Shown here: piece by piece, positions 5,373 to 58,665 of the stretch
Position numbering within the stretch: position 1 is the stretch's first letter
Layout: every line of letters begins with the position of its first letter
The notes under the pieces: model-generated
The model's database searches: none
What the model saw: only the letters and a program-made list of their open reading frames with translations
Told to the model about the DNA's origin: nothing
IMG/VR virus record: IMGVR_UViG_3300032242_001675
Coordinates: 1-58,665 of that record
Direction: 5' to 3' (one strand)
Source: a virus
Lineage: Duplodnaviria; Caudoviricetes
DNA length: 58,665 nucleotides
Position numbers and translations under genes: made by a program

Positions 5373-5381
5373 GGATAAACC

Positions 5382-7900: not shown

Positions 7901-7902
7901 CA

Positions 7903-8827: not shown

Positions 8828-8902
8828 GCGATATTCCAGATTGGTTTTTTGTGGCATATATTGCGTGGTGTGGAATCTTATTGATAATAAAGGGGTGGTT
8901 AC

Positions 8903-10761: not shown

Positions 10762-10763
10762 GG

Positions 10764-12416
10764 TTATTCCTTAGTTGCGTAAGGCGAGTGTTTAACTAAA
10801 TCCGCATACGTGGTATGGAATCGTTTAACAACGTCTTTATATTCGGGCGATGAAAAGAAAGAAGAAGTTGCTGCATTAGGATTTTTTTCAAAATATTGTG
10901 CTTGTTTTTCAGCCATTTCGCCCATGTACTTGTTAGTAACTATATTTTTACTACCCAAATACATGATAAAAGAAGCCGGATCTGTTTCTTTAAACCCCGG
11001 TTTAGCCATTTGTTGCGCATCAAACGTGGAAATCTGAGGGCCATATATAGACTTGCCCGCTTTCATTACGTCTTGATTTAAAGTGTAAATTAACTGAGCA
11101 ATATTTCTAGCAACGGCTTGTTTTTCAGGCAACAAATTTAACTTGTTAATAGCTTCACTAACTGGAACCGAAGCGCTTCCCCATGGCGTATTGACGCCGC
11201 TTTCCGCCAACTGAAGTAATGCGGTCATCGGCCCTTGATGAACCAATTGACCCACCACGTCTTTATTGTTTTTAACCAGATCAATAAGTTCTCGTGTTTT
11301 AACGTCATTCATCGCAACTGTATTTTGGTCATACCCAGCAAGCGTATTATGTTTTTCAACATAAGGGGTCATACGTTTTTCTCGCTCTGCTTTTAATGCT
11401 TCAATATCCGCCTCGCCTTGTTTTTTCAATAGATCTTGTTTCGTTGCCAAACTTGATTGCGTATTGTTTGAAGCTAAAACACCTGCGCCGTTTTCTTGTT
11501 TAAAAATTCCCGTAGCAATTGCGTTCCTTACTAGCGGGTTGCTCATGTCTAATGGCTGGTCAGGCTTCACCCCCATTGTTTGAGCAACCTGCGCAATGTA
11601 CGCAGGCGTTGGGTTATTATCTGAGGCAGGTGCCCACTTGCTAATAACGCCAGCGATTGTGTTAATTCCTTGATCGCCATAGGCTTTTAACAAATTGTCG
11701 GTAGCTTTTATACCCTCGTCTAATGAACTGAAAGCAACCAATTTGCCATCTTTCATAATAGCGCCGGGGTTATTGTTTCTTAACGGCGCAGGAATATTGC
11801 TACTTTGATTGGCGGGTATAACGCCTTGATCTTTTAAAACAGCTTCAAAACCGTTTCCGTATTTAGCCAATTCTTTTGACACGTCAATACCTTGGCTTCT
11901 TAATGTCAACAAGTTTTTAATTGTTTCATTTTGCATACCTGCCGCGTTTTTAATTCCTTCAGCTAATTTTGGATCATAACGAGAAATGGCGATCATCAAT
12001 TCAGGCGTAAATTTATTAACAACGCCAGCTGGTATATTGCCTGACGCAATGGCTTGAGATGCAGTATTTGGGTCAGTGCCCATAATATTTGCAACCATGT
12101 CTATTGCTTTATTTTGTTTAGCAACTTCAAACTTCTGCCCCGCTAGCTGAGCACGCATCTGCGCAATAGCGGGGGCGCGGGTTTCTTGTTCTTCCTGCTG
12201 TTTACCGACGACGGAGGCGGCGTTGCCGAGCGCCTCGCCAAAGCTCCCCGTGCGCCCCGGCGCGAGGAACGCTCCCGCCACGTTCAGCATATTGGGCTCG
12301 TTACGACGCTCAAGCGACTGGAGCGCTTGGTTTAACGCGTCAAAGTATTCTTTCTGGTACTCGGGGTCGGTCGACGCGCCGGGTGCGATGTTAGGTAATG
12401 CGCCAGCTGTTGCCAT
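10764..12416 (-). CDS. Internal virion/ejection protein with a lysozyme-like (RNNNPG) peptidoglycan-hydrolase-type domain
   Basis: LRNNNPGAI...FSSLDEGIKA...TIAGVISKWAPASDNNPTPAYIAQVA...GVKPDQPLD. Confidence 0.65.
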   Translation of the reverse strand: MATAGALPNIAPGASTDPEYQKEYFDALNQALQSLERRNEPNMLNVAGAFLAPGRTGSFGEALGNAASVVGKQQEEQETRAPAIAQMRAQLAGQKFEVAKQNKAIDMVANIMGTDPNTASQAIASGNIPAGVVNKFTPELMIAISRYDPKLAEGIKNAAGMQNETIKNLLTLRSQGIDVSKELAKYGNGFEAVLKDQGVIPANQSSNIPAPLRNNNPGAIMKDGKLVAFSSLDEGIKATDNLLKAYGDQGINTIAGVISKWAPASDNNPTPAYIAQVAQTMGVKPDQPLDMSNPLVRNAIATGIFKQENGAGVLASNNTQSSLATKQDLLKKQGEADIEALKAEREKRMTPYVEKHNTLAGYDQNTVAMNDVKTRELIDLVKNNKDVVGQLVHQGPMTALLQLAESGVNTPWGSASVPVSEAINKLNLLPEKQAVARNIAQLIYTLNQDVMKAGKSIYGPQISTFDAQQMAKPGFKETDPASFIMYLGSKNIVTNKYMGEMAEKQAQYFEKNPNAATSSFFSSPEYKDVVKRFHTTYADLVKHSPYATKE

Positions 12417-13692: not shown

Positions 13693-15264
13693 TTATTTCC
13701 TTCCTGCGCGGTGAAGCGCCTGTTTCATATATTGGAGGGGCGAGGCTTTGGGGGGTATTTTATCGGTGGGAGCCGCCCGTTTATGCTCCCTCAGTGACTT
13801 TCTAAACTCATCCAGCAGGTGCGCGCCGGCATCGCTCGAGCCGTCGCCGAGCTGAGCGACGGTGTCCGCGTCAAACACGAACTCGCCGTCTGCGAGCATC
13901 GCTGGAATTTCATCCGACTGCCCAGTACCTTTACCTTTAACATAATGCCCCGTAGCACCCGTGATGAACTCAGGTACGTGTACGTCGCCCCCGTGAGCGT
14001 AGCCCGATAACGGCGCGCCGTTGATGAGCGCCAACGCCTGCTGAGTTGCAGACCCGCTCGTGGGCGCGGAGGGTTGTTGCCCGCTAACGGGAATGTTAGG
14101 GCTAGGTTTGCCCATCTGCCCGCCCATGAACTGCGTGGGTAGCCCGTTTGACTCCGAGCCGTAAGTGAAGAATGACGACTTGGGCTTACCCGCTAGCATT
14201 TGAAACAACTTGGGGTGTACGTCTTGGAGCTGCGCCAAGTCCGTTACGCTCCCACCCGAGGCGGCGTGTACGGTGTTTTCTGGCGCCATCGCTAAGTTGT
14301 ATCCGATCTGCTGGTACTTGTCCTCGTTCGCAAACGGGTCAGTGTTATTGACTTGTCCTCCCGCTAGTGCTGTGGGCGATAAGTTGCCGGGCAACGCCCC
14401 GCCCGCTGACGTGCCACCGCTAGGTACGAGGTTTGATGCTGACGTACCGTTTGTCCCTGAACTTGTCCCAGACTTACCTAAACTAGACAATCCATTGATT
14501 AAACCGAGCGCGCCAGAACCGAGCTTTAACCCGTTTGCAATTTCAGCGGCTGATAATCCCGCCCCAGTCGCTGCACCAGCACCAGCCCCCAGAGCACCCA
14601 ACTCCGTACCCGGTATTAAACTACCACCGGTTACTGGAAAAGCCTCAGCACCCGCCGCCGTACCGCCTAGAGCAGGGGCTAGCGCCGCCGCACCCGCCAA
14701 TCCTAGCGCCCCTAGCCCAAACAGCTTGGCGTTTGACCAATCCTGCGGGGTCTGTTCGGTAGCGTTCATAGCCGACACGCCCTCGGGCAATGCGCTAGCG
14801 TCCATCCACGCCGCGCTACTCGCATCGCGCCCGTTGTTCGTGTTGCCGTAAATGAACTTCTGACCGTTAAGAACCCAAGTGGTCGGTACGCCTTGGTAGC
14901 TTGGAGATTTCGGGTCGGGCGTGGCGCCCATGTTTTGCAGGGCGGCGGCTCCGCTCGCCATGGTCGAGTCGCTACCCATCGTGTTAGGTATACCCAGCGC
15001 ATCGGCGGCGCTTGAGGTCGCTTTGCTGTAGCCGAGGTCTTGCAACACCTTCGTGACGTCACCGCCGTTGTAGGTTTCTTGCGTCTGTTTCAACCAGTCC
15101 GCAGTCGGTGCGGAGCCGTAAACTTGTTGGTAGGCGGCGGTCAGGTTATCGGGCGTGAGCGCCTGCTGGGCGTCGTAGGCGCCCGAGTCAGCCGTCGACT
15201 GCCCCGTTGTGCTGTCGGTATATGTGTTAGCCCCGCTCGGGTCAAACCCTCGTGATATCGTCAT
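13693..15264 (-). CDS. Internal virion protein with C-terminal GxGTGQSDEIPAMLADGEFV domain
   Basis: Low-complexity body, AASGG and YAHGG motifs, then a conserved-looking C-terminal domain. Confidence 0.65.
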   Translation of the reverse strand: MTISRGFDPSGANTYTDSTTGQSTADSGAYDAQQALTPDNLTAAYQQVYGSAPTADWLKQTQETYNGGDVTKVLQDLGYSKATSSAADALGIPNTMGSDSTMASGAAALQNMGATPDPKSPSYQGVPTTWVLNGQKFIYGNTNNGRDASSAAWMDASALPEGVSAMNATEQTPQDWSNAKLFGLGALGLAGAAALAPALGGTAAGAEAFPVTGGSLIPGTELGALGAGAGAATGAGLSAAEIANGLKLGSGALGLINGLSSLGKSGTSSGTNGTSASNLVPSGGTSAGGALPGNLSPTALAGGQVNNTDPFANEDKYQQIGYNLAMAPENTVHAASGGSVTDLAQLQDVHPKLFQMLAGKPKSSFFTYGSESNGLPTQFMGGQMGKPSPNIPVSGQQPSAPTSGSATQQALALINGAPLSGYAHGGDVHVPEFITGATGHYVKGKGTGQSDEIPAMLADGEFVFDADTVAQLGDGSSDAGAHLLDEFRKSLREHKRAAPTDKIPPKASPLQYMKQALHRAGRK

Positions 15265-27018: not shown

Positions 27019-30000
27019 TTACATTACCATCCCTAAATAATACGCAATCTTGGCCACTGAAGTTGCGGCACCCGAAGGACCAAACGGGATGTTTAAATCG
27101 CTTCCCGTGAAAGTGAAAGTTGAAGATGCACCCAGCGCACCGCTGTTATTATATTGGACTTGCGTGTTAGAACCAGCGGCTGTACCCACTGCCGTAGTGG
27201 TAAATGCGATAAATGTCAGTATGTCACCTGCGTTCGCCGCAGTAGCCAAGACCACCGTTGTGCCAGTGCTTGCCGTGTAATCGACCGCCTCTAAAAGAAC
27301 ACCGTTCAGATACACTTGAATGTACGGTGCGGTATAGCTTACGGTAAACGTCGTTTGCGCGGCAGTAGCGGTTTGCGTAGTTCTTGTGTACGCATTGGTA
27401 GCCCCGCTAGAAACCGTTGTCCAAGTAGGAGGTGCAGATGATCCTGCTGTGGTGAGAACCTGCCCGCTCGTGCCGTAAGAGCCGTTAACTGCAATAGCGC
27501 CTGAAGAATTGACTGTGACCGCATCCGTTGCAGAACTGTTAACCACAAAGTGAATTGAATTCGCCGTCGTTGTACCGATCGCTAAATCGGTACTTGTTGA
27601 GGTCAAATATACGTTGTTTGCACCATTTAACGACCCAGTACCACTAAATGCACTGGAGTTCATCCCATAGTCGCCGTAATACGTCGATGCCGTACCCAAG
27701 TTGTTACTGACAACAAAGTCGGTCGAGGCAGATGTTCCGTTGCTTGTATTCTGTAAAATTATCTGACTGTACGAGTTAACAGCCGACGTATACGATGCGA
27801 AAATATTTGTATCAGAATAAGACAACGTACCGTAGTTAAAAGCACCAGAGGCAGCCGCACCCGTTATGGTTGCAGTCGCGGCATAGTATGGCGAAGAAAG
27901 TATATTATTGGTTGAGTTGTAGTTAAACCCAGAATACGATGCTAATGCGCCTGTGCCATTACCGTAAGGAATATATCCAGCGGTAAGCGATGTTAAGCCT
28001 GTACCGCCGTTACTAACCACCAACGTGCCACCAAGCGTAATTGCGCCTGTGGTAGCCGTTGCAGGTGTTAATCCCGTTGTGCCGGCAGAGAAAGTTGTGA
28101 CACCCCCTGCCGAGCCACTAGAAGCCGCTGTGATGCGCCCTTGAGCATCAACCGTGATATTGGTATTGGTGTACGAGCCAGCCGTTACAGTCGTGTTTGC
28201 CAACGCTATCGTGACCCCAGCGGAGCCGTTATAACTTGTGCCTGATAATCCGGTACTAATCGTCAATGCATTTAGATTTGAACCGAGCGACACACCGGAA
28301 ATCGTTGAATTGGCAAGCCCAGCGTTCGGGATGGTCAACGACGCGGTAGCGTTGCCCGAACCGTTGGCGTACATGTAGCCCGTCAGCCCCGTCACCGCTA
28401 AGTTGGTGGTGGTCAGGTTGGTGAACGACTCGGAGGATGAGCCGGGGACTTTCTCCCAGACCCCGCCCGTAAAGATCGCCCAATCCCCGACGTTCCAGCC
28501 GCTAACGCCGTTCAGTGTCGTGTTGCCAGCAACAGATACCACATAATAGTAGCTCTGGGTGCCTACCGAAGAAGTAAGCGTCGGCGTATTCGTCGATGCG
28601 TTCCATGTGCCTTGGTAGGTCGGTGCATTGATCGGCTGTGTGCTGACAGAGGTCAACTGTCCCTGCGCGTTCACCGTAATAACGGGAATGACGGAAGACG
28701 AACCGTAAGTATTCGCCGACACGCCTGTGTTGGAGATAGCGATGGTGACGGGTGACGAGCCATTAAAGCTCGTACCTGACAAACCTGTGCCAATCGTTAG
28801 CGCGTTTGTTGTACTGGCCGTGACCGTAGTCGACCCGCCTAAACTCACCGCGTTGCCGTTAATCGTAATCGAAGAGTTAGCCAGCTGTGCGTTGGTGACG
28901 GTGCCGGACAGCGCCGTGGTAGGTACGGTCAGGGATGCGGTCATTGCGCCCGTACCATTACCGTAAACGTAACCCGTGAGCGTCGCCGCCCCTGTGCCAC
29001 CGTTCGCTACGTTAAGGATACCCGCGAGCGTCACCGCTCCCGTCGTCGCCGTTGAAGGGGTAAAGCCAGTCGTACCCGCGGAGAATGAAGTCACACCGCC
29101 CGTGGAGTTTGCCCATGCCGGAACGCCGCCCACCACCGTCAGCACCTGATTGGTGGAACCGATTGGTAGGCGCGCGGCGACTCCCGCCGACTGCTCATAA
29201 ACCAAGTCACCCGTGGTCGTTAAGGGTGTAATCGCATTGTAGGCACCCGCGGCAGTAGTAGCTCCTGTACCGCCTGAAGCCACCCCGAGCGTGCCTGCGA
29301 GCGTTACTGCGCCCGTTGTACTAGAGCTCGGAGTCAACCCAGACAATGAAGTCTGAAAGGAACTCACGCCCGCGGCAGTAGCACTAGTCGGGAACGATTG
29401 CCAAGTGCCGCTAGCAAACCCCTCGAACAGGTTCGTAGTGGTGTTAAAACGGATCTCTCCGCTCGTTCCTGCGTCCCGCTGAGCTGTGGTACCCGAAGGC
29501 AAGAGCATTGAGGCGGTGCCGGGGATAACGGGGTTTGAAGCCAACCCGATAGTAGGCGTGCCCGCTCCGTTACCGTTGGTAATAGAAATTTGGCTACTGA
29601 CCCCAGTAATGGTCACGGGGCTGAGCGTGGTGCCGTTTAATGCCAAAAGACCGATACCCGACGCATTGGCGAGCGCAAGTGGCAATCCGGTGAGTGTAAA
29701 CGTGGGGTTGCCCGCCACACCGCTACCGTTGGTGACCGAAAGCCCGTTACCGCTAGTGGAGAGCGTCACCGCGCCGATCGTGTTGGCGGCGGTCTTGGCG
29801 ACAATACCGTACCCAGCGGTTTCTAACGACCCGCTCGTGCCGTTCAGCTGTATGGTGTAAGCGCCCTGCGCCCCGCCATCGGTGATGCCGATGCCCACAC
29901 CCGTTGAAAAATACCGACTGTTCGGTAATCCCGTTTGCTGACCGACTGTTAAAAATGTTTGAGTGAGCGAAGGGCTCTGGGTAATAGCGGAAACAGTCGT

Positions 30001-30093
30001 CTGCACCGTCAGTCCGTTCTGGACGACAGGTACCAGCTCAGAGCCAGTTATGGTCTGAGCGGTGGGCAGGGAGCTGATACGTATATTAGCCAT
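27019..30093 (-). CDS. Main tail fibre protein with internal repeats
   Basis: MANIRISSLP N-terminus; 3x GV(S/T)(S/T)F....G.TP...TTGA(V/I)TL.G.L.V..GGTG; 2x NALTI.TGLSGTS.NGS..VTIA; LPSGTTAQR module. Confidence 0.8.
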   Translation of the reverse strand: MANIRISSLPTAQTITGSELVPVVQNGLTVQTTVSAITQSPSLTQTFLTVGQQTGLPNSRYFSTGVGIGITDGGAQGAYTIQLNGTSGSLETAGYGIVAKTAANTIGAVTLSTSGNGLSVTNGSGVAGNPTFTLTGLPLALANASGIGLLALNGTTLSPVTITGVSSQISITNGNGAGTPTIGLASNPVIPGTASMLLPSGTTAQRDAGTSGEIRFNTTTNLFEGFASGTWQSFPTSATAAGVSSFQTSLSGLTPSSSTTGAVTLAGTLGVASGGTGATTAAGAYNAITPLTTTGDLVYEQSAGVAARLPIGSTNQVLTVVGGVPAWANSTGGVTSFSAGTTGFTPSTATTGAVTLAGILNVANGGTGAATLTGYVYGNGTGAMTASLTVPTTALSGTVTNAQLANSSITINGNAVSLGGSTTVTASTTNALTIGTGLSGTSFNGSSPVTIAISNTGVSANTYGSSSVIPVITVNAQGQLTSVSTQPINAPTYQGTWNASTNTPTLTSSVGTQSYYYVVSVAGNTTLNGVSGWNVGDWAIFTGGVWEKVPGSSSESFTNLTTTNLAVTGLTGYMYANGSGNATASLTIPNAGLANSTISGVSLGSNLNALTISTGLSGTSYNGSAGVTIALANTTVTAGSYTNTNITVDAQGRITAASSGSAGGVTTFSAGTTGLTPATATTGAITLGGTLVVSNGGTGLTSLTAGYIPYGNGTGALASYSGFNYNSTNNILSSPYYAATATITGAAASGAFNYGTLSYSDTNIFASYTSAVNSYSQIILQNTSNGTSASTDFVVSNNLGTASTYYGDYGMNSSAFSGTGSLNGANNVYLTSTSTDLAIGTTTANSIHFVVNSSATDAVTVNSSGAIAVNGSYGTSGQVLTTAGSSAPPTWTTVSSGATNAYTRTTQTATAAQTTFTVSYTAPYIQVYLNGVLLEAVDYTASTGTTVVLATAANAGDILTFIAFTTTAVGTAAGSNTQVQYNNSGALGASSTFTFTGSDLNIPFGPSGAATSVAKIAYYLGMVM

Positions 30094-37929: not shown

Positions 37930-38352
37930 TTAAACGACGAACTGACGCATGTCAAGCACGCGGTCGGCGTTTACTTTGCAAAACAACTCAAAGTCGTTCA
38001 TGATTTGAAACGCAACGGTGTCTTCGGGGTCATCAGGGTGAGGAACCTCAAAACGATCGCCCGACCAACGCGGCACGCGACAAAAATCACCCACTTGAAC
38101 CCAAGTACCCTCAGGCCAATCTTGCGCAGTATCACGGTTTTTAAAACACAACGAGCCCATGCTGATTACTTTTGCTACTAGGGACTGCGCTTTTTCGGTT
38201 TCCCTCGTTTCATTAACCAGAAGTATCCCACCTTTAGAGGCGCGCTTTACGCTTTTAAGCTGTAAAAGAATTCTTGCGCCAAGCGGGGTAACACCGGGGT
38301 CAACGCTTGGGAATGCTTCCTCAAGTGTGGAAAAATCACGTTCAATAGTCAT
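37930..38352 (-). CDS. GroES/Cpn10-like co-chaperonin
   Basis: TPLGARILL...SKGGILL...AKVISMG...WVQVGD...IMNDFEL. Confidence 0.85.
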   Translation of the reverse strand: MTIERDFSTLEEAFPSVDPGVTPLGARILLQLKSVKRASKGGILLVNETRETEKAQSLVAKVISMGSLCFKNRDTAQDWPEGTWVQVGDFCRVPRWSGDRFEVPHPDDPEDTVAFQIMNDFELFCKVNADRVLDMRQFVV

Positions 38353-38361: not shown

Positions 38362-38910
38362 CTATGCTGAAACCTTTACGGCTTCGGGTTGAAAAACACT
38401 GTCAATGAGTTTGTTAAGATATTTCATTTCTTGCACACCGCGTCGCGCCTCAGACCAAGGTCCCCGAGGACCGCGCAAAGCTAGTTTATTCTTTTCGGAT
38501 AAAGGTTTTCCTTTTTTGGACAAGCTAACAGATTCGTTCCACTCTGGCGAATGAATCACGTTTTTCTGTCTTTTTGATTTTGCTAAACGCTCGCTTTCAG
38601 AATGCGTCCAGCCGCCCTTACGGTGCTCTTCCGATCGTTTTATTTTGGCGACTTCATACAGACGAGAGTTTGATATCTGGCATTGCTTTGCCATCAATAC
38701 CACAGCGTACCACTGCCTACCCCCGTGCATTCTAGCTAAACAGTTATGCGCAATAAAATGCTCGCGGGCTGTTAGCTCAACGAGATTGGAGGCGTGGTCG
38801 GTGCCCCCCATTGACTTCGGCACTATGTGGTGACGCTCTTTATAACCGGCAACAGTTTTGCGCAGTAACGCTTTAACGATTAACTGCTCATAAACTTTGT
38901 GATAATTCAT
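38362..38910 (-). CDS. Free-standing HNH homing endonuclease
   Basis: MNYHKVYEQLI...ERHHIVPKSMGGTDHASNLVELTAREHFIAH; basic NUMOD-like C-terminus. Confidence 0.9.
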   Translation of the reverse strand: MNYHKVYEQLIVKALLRKTVAGYKERHHIVPKSMGGTDHASNLVELTAREHFIAHNCLARMHGGRQWYAVVLMAKQCQISNSRLYEVAKIKRSEEHRKGGWTHSESERLAKSKRQKNVIHSPEWNESVSLSKKGKPLSEKNKLALRGPRGPWSEARRGVQEMKYLNKLIDSVFQPEAVKVSA

Positions 38911-49610: not shown

Positions 49611-49789
49611 AAGTCGTCGTTGCAACTCAAGAGGCTATCAGGATTGCGGAGCATGACTGCTCGGCTGCCGCAGACCCTTGGTTCGAGGCCTACCAATGGC
49701 TGGATGAGTATTGCCCTAAAAATCGCCTCGCAGTTGTTGACAAGCACATCGGCACAGACCTCCTTTACGTATGGGTGAAGAAAGTATGA
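49607..49789 (+). CDS. Hypothetical protein
   Basis: GGAGG RBS; ATGA coupling on both sides. Confidence 0.55.
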   Translation: MKVVVATQEAIRIAEHDCSAAADPWFEAYQWLDEYCPKNRLAVVDKHIGTDLLYVWVKKV

Positions 49790-50748
49790 GTCGCTCTATT
49801 TTTGAGACTCTGTCCGTCGACCGCACGGTGATCAGGTGGGAGGACCACCTGCGCACCCTCACCCCGGTGGAGAACCACCGTGGCGTCTGGTTCAAGCGCG
49901 AGGACTACTTTGCTCCGCTCGGCTACGGCGGACCGAACGGCTCTAAGATGCGCCAGCTGATCTGGGTGATGAGCAGCCGCCGCGCGGGCAAGACCCACGT
50001 GCTCTCGGGCGCTTCCGTGAGGTCGCCCCAGCTGAGCATGTCTGCAATTGTCGGCGCGCACTACGGCCTGCAGACTCGGCTCGTGGTGGGGGCTACAAAG
50101 CCCGCCACTCTTAAGCGCCACCCGAACCCCTACGTTGCGCTCGGGTTCGGCGCGCACTTTGAGTACATTAACGTCGCTTATAACCCGGCGCTCCAGCGGG
50201 AGGTCGCGCGCCTGACCCAGCCCGAGTCCTTGGTGGTGGAGTACGGCATTACGCTCGACCACAAGAAACACGACAGCGCGCAGGTCTACGGGTTCCACGA
50301 CGTCGGCGCACACCAGGTCACTAACATACCCCCCGAGGTGCGCACGTTGGTGGTGCCCGCGGGGTCTTGTAATTCCCTGGGTAGTGTGCTGCTCGGCCTG
50401 AGCCGGGACTCCAAGAACGTGTCCACGCTGTTCACGCTCGGAATCGGTCCGAGCAAGCAGTCCTGGCTACGCGACCGGATGAACAGCATCGGCGTGGACG
50501 TTGACCGGCTGCCGTTTGCCTGGAAACATTTCTCGCTCCACGACACCGGCTACTCGACTTACCAGGACATGGTCAAGGAGTCCTTTGACGGCATAGAGTT
50601 CCACCCGACCTACGAGGCCAAGTGCATAAGATGGCTTAAGGAGAAAGGCTGGGTGAATGAGGACGACACGAGTATGTTTTGGATCGTAGGCAGCGAGCCT
50701 AAAATACCGCTGATTAAGCCCTATTTCACCCACCAGGTGGAGTCATGA
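49786..50748 (+). CDS. PLP-dependent enzyme (fold type II), putative DNA-base amino-acid decarboxylase
   Basis: LTPVE...WFKREDY...GGPNGSKMRQ (PLP lysine), VPAGSCNS, FHPTYEAK, FWIVG; first gene of the modification cluster. Confidence 0.8.
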   Translation: MSRSIFETLSVDRTVIRWEDHLRTLTPVENHRGVWFKREDYFAPLGYGGPNGSKMRQLIWVMSSRRAGKTHVLSGASVRSPQLSMSAIVGAHYGLQTRLVVGATKPATLKRHPNPYVALGFGAHFEYINVAYNPALQREVARLTQPESLVVEYGITLDHKKHDSAQVYGFHDVGAHQVTNIPPEVRTLVVPAGSCNSLGSVLLGLSRDSKNVSTLFTLGIGPSKQSWLRDRMNSIGVDVDRLPFAWKHFSLHDTGYSTYQDMVKESFDGIEFHPTYEAKCIRWLKEKGWVNEDDTSMFWIVGSEPKIPLIKPYFTHQVES

Positions 50749-51755
50749 TGAGCCGACCCGACTACCGACTGCCCGAGCAGCGCCTCGGTTATTTCACGCA
50801 GCTGTATTATGCAACTTTAAAATACAAAGTATCTCCCGGACTGGTATACTTATTTATGCCTGAATTAGCCTCTCGTTACAACTGGTCTGTAGACCAAAAA
50901 CTTTGGTTTTCATTTATAAACGGGATGACTCAAAACCCTATAACTTCTATGCGCATAATGGAAGCCTCTCCATTTATTCCCCAGTCAAAAGAAGAGTTCA
51001 AGCGTTTGGACGAATGGTTTAACCGCGAATGGGACAAATTAAGTTTTGATACAGATAGAAGAAAGCAAAAACGCGATACTTTAAAAGCGATTTGGTCTTA
51101 TTCTGAATTAGTAAAAGAACACGGCTCTCAAGAAACTACCTGGAAACAAAAAACACCTTATTCAGTTTTATGGGAAAGAGCTAATGGTAAAATATACAGC
51201 TTTGGCAGGCTGAGCGCGTTCAGTTATTTAGAATATGTTAAGATAATGGGGTATGGAAACGACTGTTCTAGCCTTATGTTTGAAGAAAAAGAAGGAAGTC
51301 GTTCTCATCGAAATGGAGCTTTACTTTTACTAGGTCACGATGAAATTGTTTGGGACAAACGTATTGGCAACGGTTTTAATGGGCGGTATGAAAACTTTGA
51401 AAAAATATGCGAATATTTAACTAAAGCCGCTGATGATTTTTTAAAAGACTTTAACGCCAGGTACCCCGAGATTAAAGGAGATTACTACACTTTAGAAAGC
51501 TGTTTGTGTACGTTTAAAAACTCTTTTTTCTCTCGTAGGTATTTTGGAGTTTACGCCGATATGTCTTGGGACAGAATAAAATGGTATGATGATAAGGGTA
51601 TGTCCAAATATACAGAAATATTTAAAGACATTCGTTCTCAAAATTTACCGGAATGGTTAAGAGAAGAGTGCGAAAATAAACCAGTTTCTCGCTCTATAAA
51701 AGCTAGCAAATTTGCACTAACCGGTATTCCGTATCGAAGCGAGTTTTTTCTATGA
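50745..51755 (+). CDS. Amino acid:DNA transferase (aGPT-Pplase2-type, HhH-glycosylase-like fold)
   Basis: FDTDRRK, SFGRLSAFSYLE, SRSHRNG, YTLESCLCTFK..F...RY.GVY; context next to PLP enzyme and kinase. Confidence 0.75.
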   Translation: MMSRPDYRLPEQRLGYFTQLYYATLKYKVSPGLVYLFMPELASRYNWSVDQKLWFSFINGMTQNPITSMRIMEASPFIPQSKEEFKRLDEWFNREWDKLSFDTDRRKQKRDTLKAIWSYSELVKEHGSQETTWKQKTPYSVLWERANGKIYSFGRLSAFSYLEYVKIMGYGNDCSSLMFEEKEGSRSHRNGALLLLGHDEIVWDKRIGNGFNGRYENFEKICEYLTKAADDFLKDFNARYPEIKGDYYTLESCLCTFKNSFFSRRYFGVYADMSWDRIKWYDDKGMSKYTEIFKDIRSQNLPEWLREECENKPVSRSIKASKFALTGIPYRSEFFL

Positions 51756-52399
51756 ACTATCAACGTATATATGAAAGTTTAATTTTTAAAGCGCAAGAAA
51801 GACCTCCCCTCACCGGCTACACGGAAAAACATCATATAGTTCCACGATGTTTAGGGGGAAAAGAAGAGCATTCTAATTTGGTCATTCTGAGCGCTGAAGA
51901 ACATTTTTTAGCTCATCAGTTACTCGTTAAAATTTATCCGAAACATGACGGACTAGCTTATGCTGCCAAACTTATGACTATGTCAAAAGGTAAAGGTAGA
52001 GTGGGTAATAAATTATACGGATGGTTAAAAAAGCGCGCTTCAATCGCACAGTCTAATCAGTCTTCTAAGCAGAATAAATTAAATAACCCGTCTAATAAAC
52101 CTGAAGTTAAAGCGATGCGCAGAGAACAGCTTTTAAAAAACAACCCTATGAAAATAGATAGTATTAAGCAGAAAGCTACTTCTAAATCAATCGCAAAAAC
52201 TAAAGAAAGAATGAAAAACCCAAGTCTTAGAAACGCATGGGTTGAAATCGTAACAAAAGCTAAAGTAGAGCAAAACTCTTACGCAAAACAGGGTAAATCT
52301 TTGAGTGATAGATGGAAAGAGCCTGATTTTAAGCGTAAGATGGTAGCTTCGATTAAAGCGGGTAAAGAAAAAAGCAAATTTAAAGAGGTTTTAATATGA
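51752..52399 (+). CDS. Free-standing HNH homing endonuclease
   Basis: MNYQRIYESLI...YTEKHHIVPRCLGG....SNLVILSAEEHFLAHQLL; NNPS/NNPM repeats. Confidence 0.9.
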   Translation: MNYQRIYESLIFKAQERPPLTGYTEKHHIVPRCLGGKEEHSNLVILSAEEHFLAHQLLVKIYPKHDGLAYAAKLMTMSKGKGRVGNKLYGWLKKRASIAQSNQSSKQNKLNNPSNKPEVKAMRREQLLKNNPMKIDSIKQKATSKSIAKTKERMKNPSLRNAWVEIVTKAKVEQNSYAKQGKSLSDRWKEPDFKRKMVASIKAGKEKSKFKEVLI

Positions 52400-52974
52400 A
52401 CCGTATTATCAACATTCGCGGGACTAGCGGATCGGGTAAGTCTACCATCGCCCGCACGTTCCTGGAGCATTTACCGCACGAGCCCCTACCGGACTCCACG
52501 GGTAAAGTGAAAGGCTACCGCGTGGACGCCACCGCGGCGGGCTTAACGCAGCCGCTGTTTATTGTCGGGCGGTATGACATCGCCTGCGGCGGGGGCGACA
52601 CCCTACGCAGCGAGGAAGAAGCCGCGCAGCTTTGTGACTTCGCGCAGCAGCAAGGCCACGTGCTCCTGGAGCGCATGCTCACCAGCGGGAGCGGACCGAA
52701 AGGGCAGTTCGCCTCCACGTTCCTCGGCACGGGTAAAATCACTTACGCCATAATGGACACCCCGCTGGAGGTGTGCCTGGAGCGGGTGATGGGGCGGCGG
52801 GCTGAGCGCGGCGACGACCGCCCGTTTAACCCCGAGAACACCGTGGGCAAGTACCACGGCTCGCACCGCGCGGCGGAAAAACTGAAAACCGCTGGCGAGG
52901 ACGTCCGCCTGATTGACCACACCGACGCGTTTAAACAGGTGTTGGCTATTTACCTGGAGGCCGAGCAGCTATGA
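52396..52974 (+). CDS. P-loop nucleotide kinase of the modification cluster (candidate 5-hmdUMP/dNMP kinase)
   Basis: IINIRGTSGSGKST, GRY...CGGGD, DTPLEVCLERV..RR. Confidence 0.75.
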   Translation: MNRIINIRGTSGSGKSTIARTFLEHLPHEPLPDSTGKVKGYRVDATAAGLTQPLFIVGRYDIACGGGDTLRSEEEAAQLCDFAQQQGHVLLERMLTSGSGPKGQFASTFLGTGKITYAIMDTPLEVCLERVMGRRAERGDDRPFNPENTVGKYHGSHRAAEKLKTAGEDVRLIDHTDAFKQVLAIYLEAEQL

Positions 52975-53858
52975 GCAGCGTACAGACCGTGACCGTAGAC
53001 ATTGACCTGTTTTTAAACTTCGTGACCGAGCGCGAGTCGCTTCGGCTGCGGAAGGAGAGCGGCGAGCCCGCCCCCTGGACCGAGGACGCCACGCTCGCGC
53101 GGTATCGGTTTTGCAACATACGCCGCAAAGACGACCGCGTGACGCGGTGGCTACTGCGCGAGTACTATGCCAAGCTCCCGCCCGACGCGGATTACTGGTT
53201 CGCCGCGGCAATCGCGCGCCACCTGAACTGGCCGCCGGTGCTTAAGGTGCTGCTGCAAGATAAGATGATTCCCGCGCGGGCGGAGAAGTTCTGGCCAGGG
53301 GCGTTTGCCGCCCGGCTGGAGCAGCTGAAAAAGGAGATGGGCAAGGTGTACACCTCGGCCTATGTCGTTTACCCCGGTCACGACAAAGGTAAGACTAAGT
53401 CCCACAACATGGCGCATTTGATATTTGCCCCGCTCGCCGAGAGCGCTAAGCAGGTGCGCGCGGCGCTGCGCCAAGGGCGGCTCGAGCCCACGGTGAACGA
53501 GCTGGTTAAGTCCTACGGCATTAGTAACTTTATGGCGGGGCAGATCGCCGCGGATTTAAGCTACCTGCCGGGGCAGCTGAAAGACGCCTCCGACCTCTAC
53601 ACCTACGCGTCGCGGGGTCCGGGCTCGCAGCAAGGCCTGAACCGCCTGCGGGCGCTGCCGCTGACGCACCAAGACTCCGCGGAGGAGTTCTGCGGCCACC
53701 TGCGGCAGGTGCTCGAGACCATCACCGAGTGGACTCCGTTTAAAGACCTAACGCTGTACGATGTGCAAAACTGCTTTTGTGAGTTCGACAAATACTGCCG
53801 GGCGGTGCTGCTGGAAGGCCGCCCGCGCCAAGACTACCACCCCACCACGGAGTTTTAA
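52971..53858 (+). CDS. 5-hmdU DNA kinase-type protein (aGPT-Pplase1 / HMUDK helical family)
   Basis: ERESLR..KE.G.PAPWTED..L..YRFCNIRRKDDRVT, YTSAY, FMAGQIAADL, GPGS..GL, DVQNCFCEFDKY. Confidence 0.82.
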   Translation: MSSVQTVTVDIDLFLNFVTERESLRLRKESGEPAPWTEDATLARYRFCNIRRKDDRVTRWLLREYYAKLPPDADYWFAAAIARHLNWPPVLKVLLQDKMIPARAEKFWPGAFAARLEQLKKEMGKVYTSAYVVYPGHDKGKTKSHNMAHLIFAPLAESAKQVRAALRQGRLEPTVNELVKSYGISNFMAGQIAADLSYLPGQLKDASDLYTYASRGPGSQQGLNRLRALPLTHQDSAEEFCGHLRQVLETITEWTPFKDLTLYDVQNCFCEFDKYCRAVLLEGRPRQDYHPTTEF

Positions 53859-53866
53859 GAGAAACT

Positions 53867-54865
53867 ATGGAAATCATCGCACGTAATGTTAATGAGCTGT
53901 TCGCCGATATGCTCTGGCGGTTTAAAACGGAGTCCGTACTTACCCAGACCCGCAACGGACCCGCCCTGCGTATTCCCCGTCCGGTGCTCACCACGCTCTC
54001 AGCGCCCGAGGAGCGGGTGTTGTTTCACGCGGCGCGCGACGCTAACCCTATCTTCCACCTGATGGAGTCGATTTGGATGCTCGCGGGGCGGCGCGATGTC
54101 GAGTTCCTCGCGCTTTTTAACAGCCGCATCGCGCAGTACTCGGACGACGGTCGGGTGTTTAACGCGGCGTATGGCCACCGCATGCGCACCCACTTCCGCG
54201 TAGACCAGCTGATTGAGGCGATTACGCTCCTGCGGCGCGACCCCGAAACCCGGCGGTGCGTGGTGCAGCTGTGGGAGGCCGCCGACCTGACCAATCAGAA
54301 CTCCAAAGACCTCGCCTGCAACACGCAGATAGTCTTCGGGCGCGGGGTGCACGGCACGCTCGACGCACTAGTGACCAACCGCAGCAACGACGCGTGGTAC
54401 GGCTACGCCGGGGCTAACGCCGTGCACTTCACCGTCATTCAGGAGCTCGTGGCGCGGGCGCTCGGTTGGCCAATGGGTACGTACTCCACCGTCACCGCTA
54501 ATCTGCACCTTTACACCGAGCTCTATAACGCCCAGCACCACGTTGAGAACCCGCCCGTCAACGCCGACACTTTCGATTATTACTTCTTAAAGAACCTGAC
54601 GGCTTACCCGTTGATGGTTAACGCGAACTACCGCGGGTTCCTGGAGGACTGCGAGGCGTTCTGCCGCGACCCGTTTAACCAGACCGCGCGCTACCAGCAT
54701 CACTTCTTCCCCGCGGTGGCGCTCCCCATGGCTATGGTGAGCCACGTGCGCCGCACTAAACAGTCCGACGGCTATTACTGGGCGAGCCAGGTCGAGGCTC
54801 AGGATTGGAAAATAGCGACGCAGGAGTGGATTGCGCGGCGCGAGAAAAACTCAGCTATAATTTAA
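53867..54865 (+). CDS. Thymidylate-synthase-family dUMP hydroxymethylase
   Basis: TRNG, RDANPIFHLMESIWMLAGR, AYGHR, catalytic DLACN, RSNDAWYGYAGANAVHF (Asn at the specificity position points to dUMP), NLHLY. Confidence 0.85.
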   Translation: MEIIARNVNELFADMLWRFKTESVLTQTRNGPALRIPRPVLTTLSAPEERVLFHAARDANPIFHLMESIWMLAGRRDVEFLALFNSRIAQYSDDGRVFNAAYGHRMRTHFRVDQLIEAITLLRRDPETRRCVVQLWEAADLTNQNSKDLACNTQIVFGRGVHGTLDALVTNRSNDAWYGYAGANAVHFTVIQELVARALGWPMGTYSTVTANLHLYTELYNAQHHVENPPVNADTFDYYFLKNLTAYPLMVNANYRGFLEDCEAFCRDPFNQTARYQHHFFPAVALPMAMVSHVRRTKQSDGYYWASQVEAQDWKIATQEWIARREKNSAII

Positions 54866-54916
54866 ACGCGGTCTCTTTTTTATAACTTTTCTAACCTCAT
54901 AACTGGACTACTTCTC

Positions 54917-55405
54917 ATGAAAGACACTCTGGAGTTTACACAGGCGGGCGCGGACGTGAAGCGCTACCACACCCTGCTCACCCTGCAAAGCGAAACCGTG
55001 GGGCACCACTCCCACGGCGTGGCGATGCTCTGCCTACTGCTCGACCCCCAAGCGAGCCGCCCGTTGTTAATTGCGGCGCTCACCCACGACCTGGCCGAAC
55101 ACGTCACCGGCGACATCCCCTCCCCCGCTAAGCGCGAGTACGGCATCGGCGACCAAGTGAACGAGCTCGAGCAGCGGCTCCTCAACTCCGTCGGGCTCGG
55201 CGTGCCGATGCTCTACCACCACGAGGCGCGCATCCTTAAGCTCGCCGACATACTCCAGGGTATGCTGTTCTGCGCTCGTGAGCTGTCGCTGGGCAACCGG
55301 CGCATGCGCGCGGTGTTTAACAACTACGTGAGCTATGCCGAGGCGATGAAGCCGGTCGACCGGGAACGGGTTATTTTTGAAATCATCAAGGAGCAGGCAA
55401 AATGA
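54917..55405 (+). CDS. HD-domain nucleotide hydrolase (YfbR-like)
   Basis: VKRYH, ETVGHHS, LTHDLAEHVTGDIPSPAK, KLAD. Confidence 0.85.
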   Translation: MKDTLEFTQAGADVKRYHTLLTLQSETVGHHSHGVAMLCLLLDPQASRPLLIAALTHDLAEHVTGDIPSPAKREYGIGDQVNELEQRLLNSVGLGVPMLYHHEARILKLADILQGMLFCARELSLGNRRMRAVFNNYVSYAEAMKPVDRERVIFEIIKEQAK

Positions 55406-55854
55406 GCGCGAATGATAAACAGGTCGCAGGCACGCACTACCACACCACCACGGGCGCACTTCAGCACTGGGACTACTGCGACGCGAACGACGTGCCGTAC
55501 CTCGAGTCTGCCTGCACCAAGTACGTGCTGCGTTGGCGTAAAAAGAACGGCATTCAGGACCTACTCAAGGCGCAGCATTACCTCGAGAAAAGACTTGAGA
55601 ACCTAGCCGCGGGGGTGGGCGCTCCGCGCGGGGGCACGCTGAACCATACCGATTACCTGCGGTTCGCGCTCGCGCACAATCTAGACTCGCCCCAGCTCGC
55701 GCTGGAGTACGAGATAATCAGCTACGTGCTGCACTGGGGCAACGCGGGGGACTTGGAGTCCGCGCAGTTGGCGCTGGAGGAGCTCTTGTTGCTGGCGCAG
55801 GCGGAAGACGACCTCTCCGCCGATGCCGATTCGTCTTACGTAGACCAGGACTGA
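55402..55854 (+). CDS. DUF3310-like protein
   Basis: ANDKQVAGTHY...KYVLRWRKKNGIQDLLKAQHYLE. Confidence 0.8.
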   Translation: MSANDKQVAGTHYHTTTGALQHWDYCDANDVPYLESACTKYVLRWRKKNGIQDLLKAQHYLEKRLENLAAGVGAPRGGTLNHTDYLRFALAHNLDSPQLALEYEIISYVLHWGNAGDLESAQLALEELLLLAQAEDDLSADADSSYVDQD

Positions 55855-55868: not shown

Positions 55869-57719
55869 ATGAGCCACACTATAGTCCTAGACACCGAAGT
55901 AGCGCCGAACGGATTTCTCTTGTTAGGGAAAATCTTAGAACTCGGCACCTACTTTCATATCTGGCTGAGCGAGCCCGCAGCCCGGGAGCGTATTGCGGAG
56001 CTCATGGCTTCGGACAATACGCTCGTCACGTTCAATGGTAATCGTTACGACCTGCCGATGATTTCCGCCGTGATAAAAGGCTTCACGGGCGAGGGGCTTA
56101 AAGCCGTGTCGGATGCCATAATCGGGGGCAACCTTTCGGCCTGGGCAGCGCGTAAGCGGTTCGGCCTGCCGCAGGTCAAAGCCGACCACATCGACCTGGT
56201 CGAGGTCGCGCCGTCTTTTGTGGGGCTGAAGACCTACGGCGCGCGTATGAACATGCCTTGGCTTCAGGATTTGCCTTATCGCCACGATGAGCCCTGGACC
56301 GAGGCACGCCTGCCGCATGTCTTAGAGTACTGTCGTAATGACGTGGACACCACCGCGGAGCTGCTTAACCGGCTCGCGGAGCCCGTTATGCTCCGGTTGG
56401 CGATGTCTAAAGAGTACGGCGTGGACATGCGCAGCAAGTCGGACACCCAGATGGCGGAGACCGCTTTTATTAAGCGTTTGCGCCTACCGGACCACGACAT
56501 CCCCGTACCCCGCGCGCTGCGTTATAAAGTGCCGAGCTTTATTCACTTTGAACTCCCGCACCTTAAAAAGCTGGCGCGGGACATGGAGGATCACATCTAT
56601 GAAGTCAACCTTAAAACGGGACACGTCATACTACCTGAGTTCCTTGGGGGAACTACCGTCGCCGTGGGCGCGGGCGTTTACCAGATGGGCGTGGGCGGAA
56701 TACACTCTACACATGATAAGTCGGTCTGCCACGTCGCGGATGAGAATACGATCATTGCGGACATTGACGCAGCGAGTTTTTACCCGAGCATTCTCATCAA
56801 CGGCAACCTCGTGCCCGAGCGGCTCGGCAGCGCGTTTATCGAGGAGTACCGCAGCGTGTACGAGCGCCGCCTCCAGGCCAAACGCGCGGGCGACCGCGTC
56901 ACCGCTGAGACGTTAAAGATCTCGCTGAACGGCACTTTCGGCAAACTCGGCAGCCGGTGGTCGGCGCTGTACGCGCCGGAGATGATGCTCGCGATTACGC
57001 TCACCGGCCAGCTGACCCTGCTCAGCCTGATTGAGCGGCTGGAGGGGGTCGGCGCGCGGACGCTCTCCGCTAACACCGATGGCATCGCTATGGCTTACAC
57101 CCCGCAGGACGTGCACCGCGTGGAGAGCGTGGTTGCGGCGTTCTCGCGGGCGACGGGGTTCGCGTTTGAGTATACGCCTTACCGCGCGTTGGCAATTAAA
57201 GACGTCAATAATTACTTCGCGGTTAAGCTCGACCGCTCCGTTAAGGCGAAAGGCATCTACGCCCCGCCCGACCTGCGTAAGAACCCGACCGCGCCGATCT
57301 GCGCTCGCGCGGTATCGTTGTGGCTCGCGCGCGGAACCCCTTTACTTCAGACCATAAAGTCGGGTAAAATAGAGGAATACTTAAGCGCACGCAACGTCAC
57401 GGGTGGCGGCGTTCAGGGGCAGCTTTACCTCGGGAAAGTGGTGCGCTGGTATAACTCAACCGATAACTCCTTACCTCCGCTAACTTACGCATCTAACGGC
57501 AACCGCGTACCGAAGACCTCCGGCGTGCGCGCGCTGATGAGGATGGGGACCGACACGTACCACCCCGTCGACCTCGACTACGACTGGTACTACAAGGAGG
57601 CCATAAGAATTGCGGTAGACACGGGGTGTCGGGAGTTTTTAACGGAAGAGCAGATAGCCTTAATCGCACCCCCGCCTAAAGTTAAAAAAGTACGCAAAAC
57701 CAAGGAAAAAGCAACATGA
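55869..57719 (+). CDS. DNA polymerase, family B-like, with 3'-5' exonuclease domain
   Basis: DTE, FNG..YD, YC.ND exonuclease motifs; DAASFYPS, KISLNGTFGK, NTDG, DVNNY polymerase motifs. Confidence 0.9.
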   Translation: MSHTIVLDTEVAPNGFLLLGKILELGTYFHIWLSEPAARERIAELMASDNTLVTFNGNRYDLPMISAVIKGFTGEGLKAVSDAIIGGNLSAWAARKRFGLPQVKADHIDLVEVAPSFVGLKTYGARMNMPWLQDLPYRHDEPWTEARLPHVLEYCRNDVDTTAELLNRLAEPVMLRLAMSKEYGVDMRSKSDTQMAETAFIKRLRLPDHDIPVPRALRYKVPSFIHFELPHLKKLARDMEDHIYEVNLKTGHVILPEFLGGTTVAVGAGVYQMGVGGIHSTHDKSVCHVADENTIIADIDAASFYPSILINGNLVPERLGSAFIEEYRSVYERRLQAKRAGDRVTAETLKISLNGTFGKLGSRWSALYAPEMMLAITLTGQLTLLSLIERLEGVGARTLSANTDGIAMAYTPQDVHRVESVVAAFSRATGFAFEYTPYRALAIKDVNNYFAVKLDRSVKAKGIYAPPDLRKNPTAPICARAVSLWLARGTPLLQTIKSGKIEEYLSARNVTGGGVQGQLYLGKVVRWYNSTDNSLPPLTYASNGNRVPKTSGVRALMRMGTDTYHPVDLDYDWYYKEAIRIAVDTGCREFLTEEQIALIAPPPKVKKVRKTKEKAT

Positions 57720-58101: not shown

Positions 58102-58665
58102 ATGTCTTGGACAGATAGCCTAGTGGTAGGCAAGCAGGCCAACCCCCCGCGCATTTGCATTTACGGCGGCCACGGTATCGGTAAGAGCACTTTGGCCTCA
58201 AAGTTTCCCGCCCCCATTTTCATCAGCACGGAGGACGGGCTGGATTCGCTCGACGTTACGTCCTTCCCCCGCGCACGGTCGATTCAGGAGGTCGTGGACA
58301 GCATTAAAACTCTCTTAAAAGAGGAGCATGAGTTTAAGACCGTGGTGATTGACTCGGTCGACTGGCTCGTCACGCCGCTGATTGAGGCAAACGTGGAGGC
58401 CTCGCACGATGCCAAGGAGCTCGCCTACGGCAAGGGGCAGATGCTCGTCGCCGAGGAGTTCCGCGAGATCCTGCAAGGGCTCGACGCGCTACGCCGTAAA
58501 AAAGCGATGAACGTCGTGCTGATTGCGCACGCCGCGGTGGTTAAATTTGAAGACCCCCGCACCGAGCCCTACGACCGCTACTCCCCCAAACTCCCTAACC
58601 GCTGCAACGCGCTGCTTCAGGAGTGGGTGGATGTCTTGGCGTTTGCGGCGTTTAAGGTGATTATT
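58102..58665 (+). CDS. Sak4-like/AAA_24 P-loop ATPase (recombination/annealing protein), 5' part; continues across the junction to 297
   Basis: Not in the ORF track. ATG at 58102 after AGGAG. Manual translation MSWTDSLVVGKQANPPRICIYGGHGIGKSTLAS (Walker A) ... TVVIDSVDW (Walker B) ... YGKG ... VVLIAH; precedes a DUF669-type SSB. Confidence 0.88.
   Translation, partial: MSWTDSLVVGKQANPPRICIYGGHGIGKSTLASKFPAPIFISTEDGLDSLDVTSFPRARSIQEVVDSIKTLLKEEHEFKTVVIDSVDWLVTPLIEANVEASHDAKELAYGKGQMLVAEEFREILQGLDALRRKKAMNVVLIAHAAVVKFEDPRTEPYDRYSPKLPNRCNALLQEWVDVLAFAAFKVII
58543..58665. repeat. Second copy of the 123-bp terminal overlap
   Basis: Identical to 1-123. Confidence 0.97.

Follow-up and report, generated by a model that had tools for sequence, protein, structure and literature searches.

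The window analysed here, that is, the whole stretch of 58,665 nucleotides of the IMG/VR virus record IMGVR_UViG_3300032242_001675 (Duplodnaviria; Caudoviricetes), carries on its plus strand a compact gene cluster that may encode a complete pathway of thymidine hypermodification based on 5-hydroxymethyl-deoxyuridine (5-hmdU). By its sequences the cluster is a chimera, in which a core cassette of the type found in phage M6 stands in one operon with a tailoring pair of the type found in phage ViI, composed of a pyridoxal 5'-phosphate (PLP) enzyme and an amino acid:DNA transferase (AADT). To the whole pathway, ending in 5-(2-aminoethoxy)methyl-deoxyuridine (5-NeOmdU), we give an even chance; enzyme activities, donor amino acid and product are all deduced from sequence homology, the catalytic residues that are kept, synteny and the lack of enzymes for other routes of tailoring. 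A pathway of this kind had been proposed in an earlier note on this DNA, made by a model from the letters alone, and its claims are taken up below where the results bear on them.

The PLP enzyme points to ViI. With this protein, tblastn retrieved 348 phage records, nearly all of ViI-like phages, at 33-40% identity. BLASTP aligned it with ViI gp226 (35% identity, E 8e-73), the lysine of its NGSK motif falling on K92 of gp226, and hhalign aligned it with M6 gp52 at 95.7% probability, the same lysine falling on K36. Both alignments run over the full length and keep this residue, the putative internal-aldimine lysine (K59 if translation starts at 49771, K54 if it starts at 49786). According to Lee 2021, gp226 decarboxylates O-serinyl-thymidine (O-SerT) with K92 as the proposed internal aldimine, and the two phage enzymes of this PLP group that have been characterised, gp226 and gp52, both act on DNA as decarboxylases. 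The AlphaFold model of the window's protein (pLDDT 92.2) has the fold of a type II PLP enzyme and, judged by these alignments, the protein is a clear homolog of the gp226-type decarboxylase.

The second member of the tailoring pair, the AADT, was aligned with 26 relatives (n = 27 in total: the window's protein, 9 of the 120 database matches listed, 11 of 81 related loci and 6 proteins of isolates, four of them characterised). Residues E251, C255, K258 and Y266 are invariant throughout, including M6 gp51, PaMx11 gp46, PhiW-14 gp109 and ViI gp247. E251 and C255 sit in the E-x3-C-x2-K motif that holds a cysteine and a neighbouring glutamate reported as essential in M6 gp51 and ViI gp247 (Lee 2021), and C255 is the predicted catalytic cysteine, with E251 as the neighbouring glutamate. 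In the predicted reaction, the nucleophile of the donor takes the place of the phosphate of 5-phosphomethyl-dU in DNA. In the maximum-likelihood tree of this alignment a split with 100/100 support places PhiW-14 gp109, M6 gp51 and PaMx11 gp46, all of them amine-linking, on one side, and ViI gp247, Montesquieu gp42, a mycobacteriophage enzyme and the clade of the window on the other. This clade comprises 16 of the 27 rows (99/100) and is separate from ViI gp247. A GS[KR]SHRNG-type motif is limited to the ViI side, and an Arg-Tyr pair downstream of the catalytic cysteine is common to the window (RRY) and ViI (TRY). Among isolates, tblastn found homologs at 34-37% identity, Montesquieu and mycobacteriophages being among the closest; no Pseudomonas phage appeared among the ten most frequent organisms of the 376 matches, and the transferases of M6 and PaMx11 were not among these matches.

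Concerning other ways of tailoring, the earlier note had seen no radical-SAM, flavin oxidoreductase or acetyltransferase gene, and searches in six frames of the complete genome agree: Radical_SAM (PF04055), DAO (PF01266) and GNAT (PF00583) gave no match, while controls were detected in 14/14 genomes. Pfam and PHROGs scans, each of 40 open reading frames (ORFs), did not show the three families either. For a PLP enzyme to act, its substrate must offer a free primary amine, and M6 gp52 is reported to act on N-alpha-GlyT only after a radical-SAM isomerase has done so (Lee 2021). Since the window has a PLP enzyme and none of these three genes, the donor is most likely linked by a side-chain atom, like the serine of ViI.

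The core cassette, on the other hand, resembles M6. When the 87 ORFs of the window were compared with the M6 genome by tblastn, six gave matches and five of these are syntenic cassette genes: gp54, gp55, gp58, gp59 and gp61 of M6 follow the window's order of kinase, PF18723 protein, thymidylate-synthase (TS) homolog, HD protein and DUF3310 protein, with identities of 28, 30, 42, 36 and 39%, respectively. PaMx11 has the same layout. As in the window, the kinase and the PF18723 protein of both phages are encoded by separate adjacent genes and a polymerase follows the cassette. M6 and PaMx11 differ from the window, however, in their glycine (N-linking) transferases, which lie on the opposite side of the AADT tree, in a polymerase and virion genes that are not shared at all, and in their further enzymes, M6 (5-NedU) needing a radical-SAM isomerase and PaMx11 (5-AcNmdU) a flavin lyase and an acetyltransferase. 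Neither the PLP enzyme nor the AADT has an M6 counterpart at the tblastn threshold of 1e-3. We also considered whether the whole phage could be called M6-like, which is ruled out by the same count, just 6/87 ORFs having a match in the M6 genome.

The TS homolog is predicted to be a dUMP 5-hydroxymethylase with catalytic C151 and a uracil-type N184. Its best match in the PDB is the CMP 5-hydroxymethylase MilA (E 1.6e-22), thymidylate synthases following at 7.8e-9 or worse. Among phages, M6/PaMx11-like enzymes rank first (40-42% identity, 1e-66 to 1e-70), followed by those of SPO1-like Bacillus phages (36%, about 1e-36) and Ackermannviridae (28-30%, about 1e-25), all of which are 5-hmdU lineages; ordinary thyA genes come last (1e-7 to 1e-11). 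The motifs KDxxCN, containing Cys151, and NRSND..GAN are common to the window and the 5-hmdU-phage enzymes and not found in T4 td, which was represented by exon 1 only (the gene is split by an intron). The Asn of dUMP-type enzymes pointed out in the earlier note is indeed present, N184 being aligned with the Asp of MilA and T4 gp42. A tree of 17 rows also places the window with the 5-hmdU-phage enzymes, apart from the two canonical ones, but its deep nodes are weak (70/93) and its branches long, and for this reason we relied on the hierarchy of E-values and on the motifs more than on the tree. On these grounds the homolog does not group with canonical ThyA, a grouping that the earlier note had named as evidence against its proposal.

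Other genes of the cluster may serve the nucleotide pool. The HD gene lies between the TS and DUF3310 genes in 45/64 related loci and is missing in 19/64; its product may deplete the dTMP/dTTP pool, a role proposed from the analogous dTTPase activities reported for PhiW-14 and phage 15599. The DUF3310 protein matches only the C-terminal half of the PF11753 model, and 'nucleotide kinase' PHROGs also match it; as the T7 gp1.7 nucleotide kinase carries a DUF3310 domain (4.5e-23), it could possibly be a nucleotide (5-hmdUMP) kinase. The polymerase encoded just after the cluster, where the earlier note had correctly placed it, is 38-40% identical to those of Achromobacter phage AchV4 and of 9g/Seurat-like phages, has no counterpart in the M6 genome by tblastn at 1e-3, and would have to accept 5-hmdUTP.

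The P-loop protein is probably the kinase that converts 5-hmdU in DNA to 5-phosphomethyl-dU. It matches M6 gp54 by tblastn with E 1e-11, and the profile of its family matches gp54 over the full length (99.5% probability, E 1.3e-22); gp54 was shown experimentally to phosphorylate 5-hmdU in DNA (Lee 2021). The earlier note had called this gene simply a P-loop kinase and had reserved the name of 5-hmdU DNA kinase-type protein for its neighbour. Both genes exist, but the P-loop protein is the actual homolog of the 5-hmdU DNA kinase and the neighbour is a separate PF18723 protein. The latter matches M6 gp55 with E 5e-33 (gp55 itself scores 8e-56 on PF18723), and its homologs also include ViI gp160 and the C-terminal half of SP10 gp186; the members of aGPT-Pplase clade 1 are listed in Lee 2018, Table 3. 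M6 gp55 is described as dispensable in vitro (Lee 2021). The model of the PF18723 protein (pLDDT 91) is all-helical; a fold search with it gave no match at E<=0.001, the best being weak matches to helix-hairpin-helix DNA glycosylases (MjOgg, E 0.13, probability 0.99, TM 0.41/0.53). It may be a DNA-handling partner of the kinase, and a prediction of the complex of the two proteins, with scores of 0.00 and 0.00, says nothing for or against their binding. A second kinase of the gp243 type (PF18747) was not found, the only match being the P-loop of the same kinase at 14 bits, under the cut-off (ViI gp243 scores 561 bits).

ViI (5-NeOmdU; kinases gp67/gp243, gp247, gp226 and gp160; Lee 2018, 2021) has the same enzyme classes as the window, the PF18723 protein included, and likewise needs no radical-SAM step. 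Its genes, however, are scattered over a myovirus genome of 157 kb (Ackermannviridae), whereas those of the window form one operon in a genome of 58.5 kb; ViI also has the gp243-type second kinase that the window lacks, the hydroxymethylase of the window is nearer to that of M6 than to those of ViI-like phages, and the virion module is unrelated to that of ViI. In the Glutamicibacter phage Montesquieu an AADT gene is directly followed by a PLP gene (annotated 'ACC deaminase'), together with kinases and a PF18723 gene. In the mycobacteriophages a ParB-dependent dioxygenase makes 5-hmdU on the DNA, while the window is predicted to make it from dUMP by the hydroxymethylase; the AADT-carrying mycobacteriophages and Montesquieu have actinobacterial hosts.

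Taken together, the pathway could proceed as follows. The TS-family enzyme would convert dUMP to 5-hmdUMP, the HD hydrolase would help to drain dTMP and dTTP, the DUF3310 protein may help to phosphorylate 5-hmdUMP and the PolB-type polymerase would place 5-hmdU into DNA instead of T. After replication, the P-loop kinase would turn the 5-hmdU of the DNA into 5-phosphomethyl-dU, possibly assisted by the PF18723 protein with its helix-hairpin-helix-like fold. Cys255 of the AADT would then attack C6, the phosphate would be expelled and the exocyclic methylene would be captured by a side-chain atom of the donor amino acid, most likely the hydroxyl of serine, so that the alpha-amine stays free. With this free amine the PLP enzyme would form a Schiff base, and decarboxylation would yield 5-NeOmdU.

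The coordinates of the cluster and of the polymerase are collected in the table. The seven genes named in the earlier note are all present, intact and on the plus strand at the places it had given, and their family assignments hold with Pfam and PHROGs; in particular, the AADT (50745) and the PF18723 protein (52971) match the two former aGPT-Pplase families, the lack of such matches having been named there as evidence against the proposal. An HNH homing endonuclease gene (HEG), not listed there, separates the AADT from the kinase. Translational coupling applies to most junctions and not to all: ATGA start/stop overlaps join the upstream ORF u60 to the PLP gene (start 49786), PLP to AADT, AADT to HEG, HEG to kinase, kinase to PF18723, HD to DUF3310 and the polymerase to the next gene, while short gaps are found between PF18723 and TS (8 nt), TS and HD (51 nt) and DUF3310 and the polymerase (14 nt). 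The start of the PLP gene at 49786 was preferred because of its ATGA overlap with the stop of the upstream ORF.

Table. Genes of the predicted thymidine hypermodification cluster, the adjoining polymerase gene and the low-GC island (positions in the window)
Feature	Position	Strand	Evidence
PLP enzyme, fold-type II	49786..50748 (alternative start 49771)	+	phrog_3650 1e-90; Pfam PALP weak, 0.0011
Amino acid:DNA transferase (AADT, formerly aGPT-Pplase clade 2)	50745..51755	+	PF18724 4.4e-16, 59.7 bits vs cut-off 26.2
HNH-type homing endonuclease (HEG), 215 aa	51752..52399	+	phrog_655 1.3e-49
P-loop 5-hmdU DNA kinase (predicted)	52396..52974	+	Walker A GTSGSGKST; profile match to M6 gp54
PF18723 'HMUDK_hel' helical protein (formerly aGPT-Pplase clade 1)	52971..53858	+	PF18723 2.7e-40
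Thymidylate-synthase (TS)-family hydroxymethylase (predicted)	53867..54865	+	PF00303 5e-17; phrog_5131 7e-98
HD-domain, YfbR-like 5'-deoxynucleotidase homolog	54917..55405	+	PF12917 3.4e-12
DUF3310 protein	55402..55854	+	PF11753 27 bits, cut-off 24; phrog_5839 1.3e-26
PolB-type DNA polymerase	55869..57719	+	phrog_1252 2.4e-155
Low-GC island (AADT + HEG)	50745..52399		GC and GC3 profile

Several observations weigh against the pathway to 5-NeOmdU. One concerns the kinase, which scores only 21 bits on PF18748, under the Pfam cut-off of 27, while M6 gp54 itself reaches 7.7e-18 on this family. Others concern the transferase, which is just 28-30% identical to ViI gp247, itself on a very long branch (3.57); because of this distance a serine donor is unproven, and the earlier note, by leaving the product as either ViI-type 5-NeOmdU or another amino-acid-derived base, had chosen the right level of claim for a cluster with a gp226 homolog and a ViI-side transferase. 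Furthermore, the closest AADTs of isolates (34%) belong to mycobacteriophages, where they lie in ParB/T-dioxygenase clusters with no PLP gene in the 8.7 kb viewed, and a place on the ViI side therefore need not mean serine as the donor. Changing two pocket residues is enough to turn a Pplase2 from a diamine to glycine, a few such residues set the donor and many Pplase2 clusters are uncharacterised (Li et al. 2026), so that the donor is not readable from the tree; a search of the PDB with the AADT family profile found no solved Pplase2 for mapping the pocket, its sole match being spurious (poxvirus M11L, E 0.083). The same pathway might thus use a donor other than serine that keeps a free alpha-amine (threonine, homoserine, cysteine, or a diamino acid linked by its side-chain amine) and yield a new base after decarboxylation, which we regard as possible but not probable. 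The separate position of the window's clade speaks for it, as does the match of the AADT to the ViI genome, whose E-value of 3.7e-26 falls short of the published similarity-network cut-off of 1e-50 and gives no link to gp247. The residue that follows the catalytic cysteine also differs, being Thr in the window, Trp in ViI, Lys in the glycine enzymes and Gly in PhiW-14, and may map to a published donor-pocket position. However, the sole characterised enzyme on the ViI side uses serine, the sole characterised partner of this type of PLP enzyme acts on O-SerT, and the Arg-Tyr pair is common to the window and ViI.

The PLP enzyme raises a different doubt. Its closest solved folds are beta-eliminating lyases and deaminases, not decarboxylases: the top Foldseek matches of the model are D-cysteine desulfhydrase (1.3e-11) and the ACC deaminase homologue 1j0a (1.5e-10), with serine dehydratase also found. 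A sequence search of the PDB returned 0 matches at E<=0.1, and the PALP match is the weak one given in the table. In addition, among the 63 loci of related viruses with at least 1.5 kb of sequence upstream of the AADT, a PLP homolog lies upstream in 39, downstream in 6 and was not seen in 18. For 5 of these 18 the whole record was searched, and the homolog was found elsewhere in 1, in none of 3 complete genomes and not in 1 incomplete record. The three complete relatives without any PLP homolog (G002, G003 and G004, the records behind loci L021, L047 and L061), out of four complete ones examined in which the gene is not near the AADT, have the AADT, the kinase and the TS cassette; the PLP step is therefore dispensable in the family, and these phages may leave the amino-acid conjugate as it is or tailor it by another route. 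One could accordingly imagine that the PLP enzyme of the window does not decarboxylate a DNA-bound conjugate and instead performs another fold-type II reaction (beta-elimination or replacement, deamination) or processes the free donor, leaving a different or undecarboxylated base; the variable distance between the two genes in other relatives would fit this too. We consider it unlikely: both characterised phage relatives decarboxylate on DNA, the full-length alignment with the lysine kept, described above, extends to both of them, and the template 1j0a was also reported for gp226 (Lee 2021). As a separate observation, in a more distant AADT group (loci L084 and L086-L090, 36-38% identity) the PLP gene lies directly downstream of the AADT gene, not upstream; some members of this group are on contigs of 87 kb that have no M6-type cassette nearby.

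A further point against the pathway is that the AADT gene is compositionally foreign and may therefore not be adapted to the resident PLP enzyme. Its G+C content (GC) is 0.377 and that of the HEG 0.355 (GC3 0.34 and 0.29), while the flanking genes are at 0.60-0.62 (GC3 about 0.8), and these two are the lowest-GC ORFs of the genome among those of at least 100 aa. The edges of this island are sharp: in a 100-nt profile, GC falls from 0.54-0.64 to 0.32-0.40 near 50750-50800 and is back at 0.58-0.67 near 52400, so that composition switches within about 100 nt at either end of the pair. The difference in GC between AADT and TS is -0.23 in the window and never below -0.09 in 67 relatives. The HEG product has an HH..N..H motif and no Pfam match, and shares 49% identity over the first 77 aa with a second copy at 38362-38910. 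Only 3/81 loci, all of low-GC members, contain HEG-like sequences, and these lie elsewhere; of 65 ordered loci, 45 have a gap of less than 100 nt between AADT and kinase and 15 a gap of 100-500 nt. The HEG is an insertion specific to this genome and stands outside the chemistry. Since AADT and HEG form one sharp island, they look jointly imported. The AADT allele of the island belongs to the family's own AADT clade, and the simplest reading is that a low-GC member of the family donated the HEG with the adjoining AADT gene, as homing with co-conversion would do; both direction and mechanism are presumed here.

It might be asked, then, whether the imported transferase, or another step, is inactive in this phage, its DNA containing 5-hmdU or ordinary T and no hypermodified base. 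The recent compositional import and the HEG that breaks an otherwise tight AADT-kinase junction would agree with such a state, but we find it very improbable, as all ORFs of the cluster are intact with their catalytic residues kept, ATGA coupling is maintained across the inserted segment and the gene set is conserved across a large family. Two other insertions were noticed. The second HNH homing endonuclease gene (38362-38910, minus strand; phrog_655 5e-45, GC 0.46) lies in the virion module beside a GroES-like gene. In the complete relative of locus L047, about 2.1 kb of small ORFs (8039-10161; 74-121 aa) are inserted between AADT and kinase.

The frequency of the cluster in metagenomes is, with the homing endonuclease and the foreign composition of the transferase gene, among the points that the earlier note had missed. 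The protein collection holds 595 AADT homologs at E<=1e-5, the best 120 being 53-70% identical and many of them on contigs of 50-60 kb. A locus search of IMG/VR with the AADT alone returned one locus, and an alignment-based search was used instead; of its at least 598 pattern matches, at least 565 encode an AADT relative. The counts for related loci given here rest on 81 of these. AADT, kinase, PF18723 and TS genes occur together in 67/81 loci and follow the window's order in 65 of the 67; the arrangement is not due to chance. Members with the cluster span GC values of 0.32-0.67, with genomes of roughly 55-60 kb, and the portal of the window is common to 5/5 complete relatives (48-67% identity), so that the conserved gene set and the common portal indicate a coherent viral family. 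As a guess, its hosts are freshwater or soil proteobacteria. In the phage collection, a DNA search with the cluster gave only short matches (3-4%), all inside the TS gene. Literature searches on pathway terms, limited in coverage, found no paper on this phage family, although its contigs may already be shown in Fig. 2 of Lee 2021 or in the similarity network of Li 2026.

As the enzyme families and the logic of the pathway are already published (Lee 2018, 2021; Li 2026), the finding extends known biology and opens no new kind. Its particular features are the joining of an M6-type core and a ViI-type pair in one operon, the occurrence of this operon in a widespread, uncultured and probably podoviral family, an uncharacterised transferase clade and an import linked to an endonuclease. 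Thymidine hypermodification shields phage DNA from restriction enzymes and is relevant to sequencing, cloning and phage engineering; its chemistry has so far been worked out in a handful of cultured myo- and siphoviruses, while the window offers a complete compact pathway in a lineage apparently common in environmental viromes, with virion genes like those of abundant aquatic podoviruses. The clean set of four genes (kinase, helical protein, transferase and PLP enzyme) suits reconstitution in vitro with a member of the uncharacterised transferase clade, and the island is a natural example of a transferase gene swapped together with a homing endonuclease, which bears on the diversification of phage DNA chemistry. 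Going farther, we would tentatively speculate that the window's transferase clade, with hundreds of members in uncultured podovirus-like phages of about 55-60 kb and no cultured representative, uses a non-serine donor and that its AADT gene is traded, in one cassette with an HNH homing endonuclease gene, among family members that differ widely in GC. If so, a widespread family would carry an undescribed thymidine hypermodification, and the trading would give the 'modular' shuffling of phage DNA-modification chemistry a concrete mechanism.

Concerning the virion, which the earlier note had taken as podoviral, the best isolate matches of the portal are Caulobacter phage RW (51%), Roseobacter phages CRP-901/902 (37%) and pelagiphages HTVC027P/023P (33%). 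A preprint calls HTVC023P and HTVC027P podoviruses on the grounds of their morphology and relates their replication genes to those of Yuavirus siphophages. PF18724 and PF18723 were absent from all five of the nearest records checked (RW, MW202545, HTVC027P, HTVC023P and CRP-901). General scans found no tail tube, sheath or tape-measure family, which agrees with the earlier proposal; since many virion ORFs match nothing, however, a podovirus-like morphology is something that we infer. An SU10-adaptor match is weak (25.9 bits, cut-off 27), as are the tape-measure PHROG matches on 13693-15264, which cover about 60 residues only. The ORF of 1024 aa at 27019-30093 was considered as a tape measure, a sign of a siphovirus, and was ruled out, its matches being tail-fibre proteins. 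The virion module also contains a GroES-like co-chaperonin gene (37930-38352, minus strand; phrog_3188 2.8e-9), and a GroES gene is also listed in a figure legend of the pelagiphage preprint.

The IMG/VR record is that of a complete virus genome, of 58,665 bases with and 58,542 bp without an exact terminal repeat of 123 nt (positions 1-123 = 58543-58665). An AAA_24 ATPase gene (58102 onward) spans the junction of the record ends, and the repeat resembles the overlap that assembly leaves in a circular or circularly permuted genome. Replication and nucleotide-metabolism genes occupy a plus-strand block running from about 49044 through the record end to about 9333, and lysis, virion, packaging, primase and helicase genes a minus-strand block at 9439-48789. 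A further low-GC block at 3308-12416 (0.37-0.47, against about 0.55-0.66 elsewhere), with many small plus-strand ORFs and two large distal minus-strand genes (9439-12416), suggests further mosaic imports. The ORF of 323 aa at 6929-7900 (plus strand) matches the RF-1 domain (peptide chain release factor / peptidyl-tRNA hydrolase) at 3.1e-9, barely over the Pfam cut-off, and is an unusual cargo for a phage.

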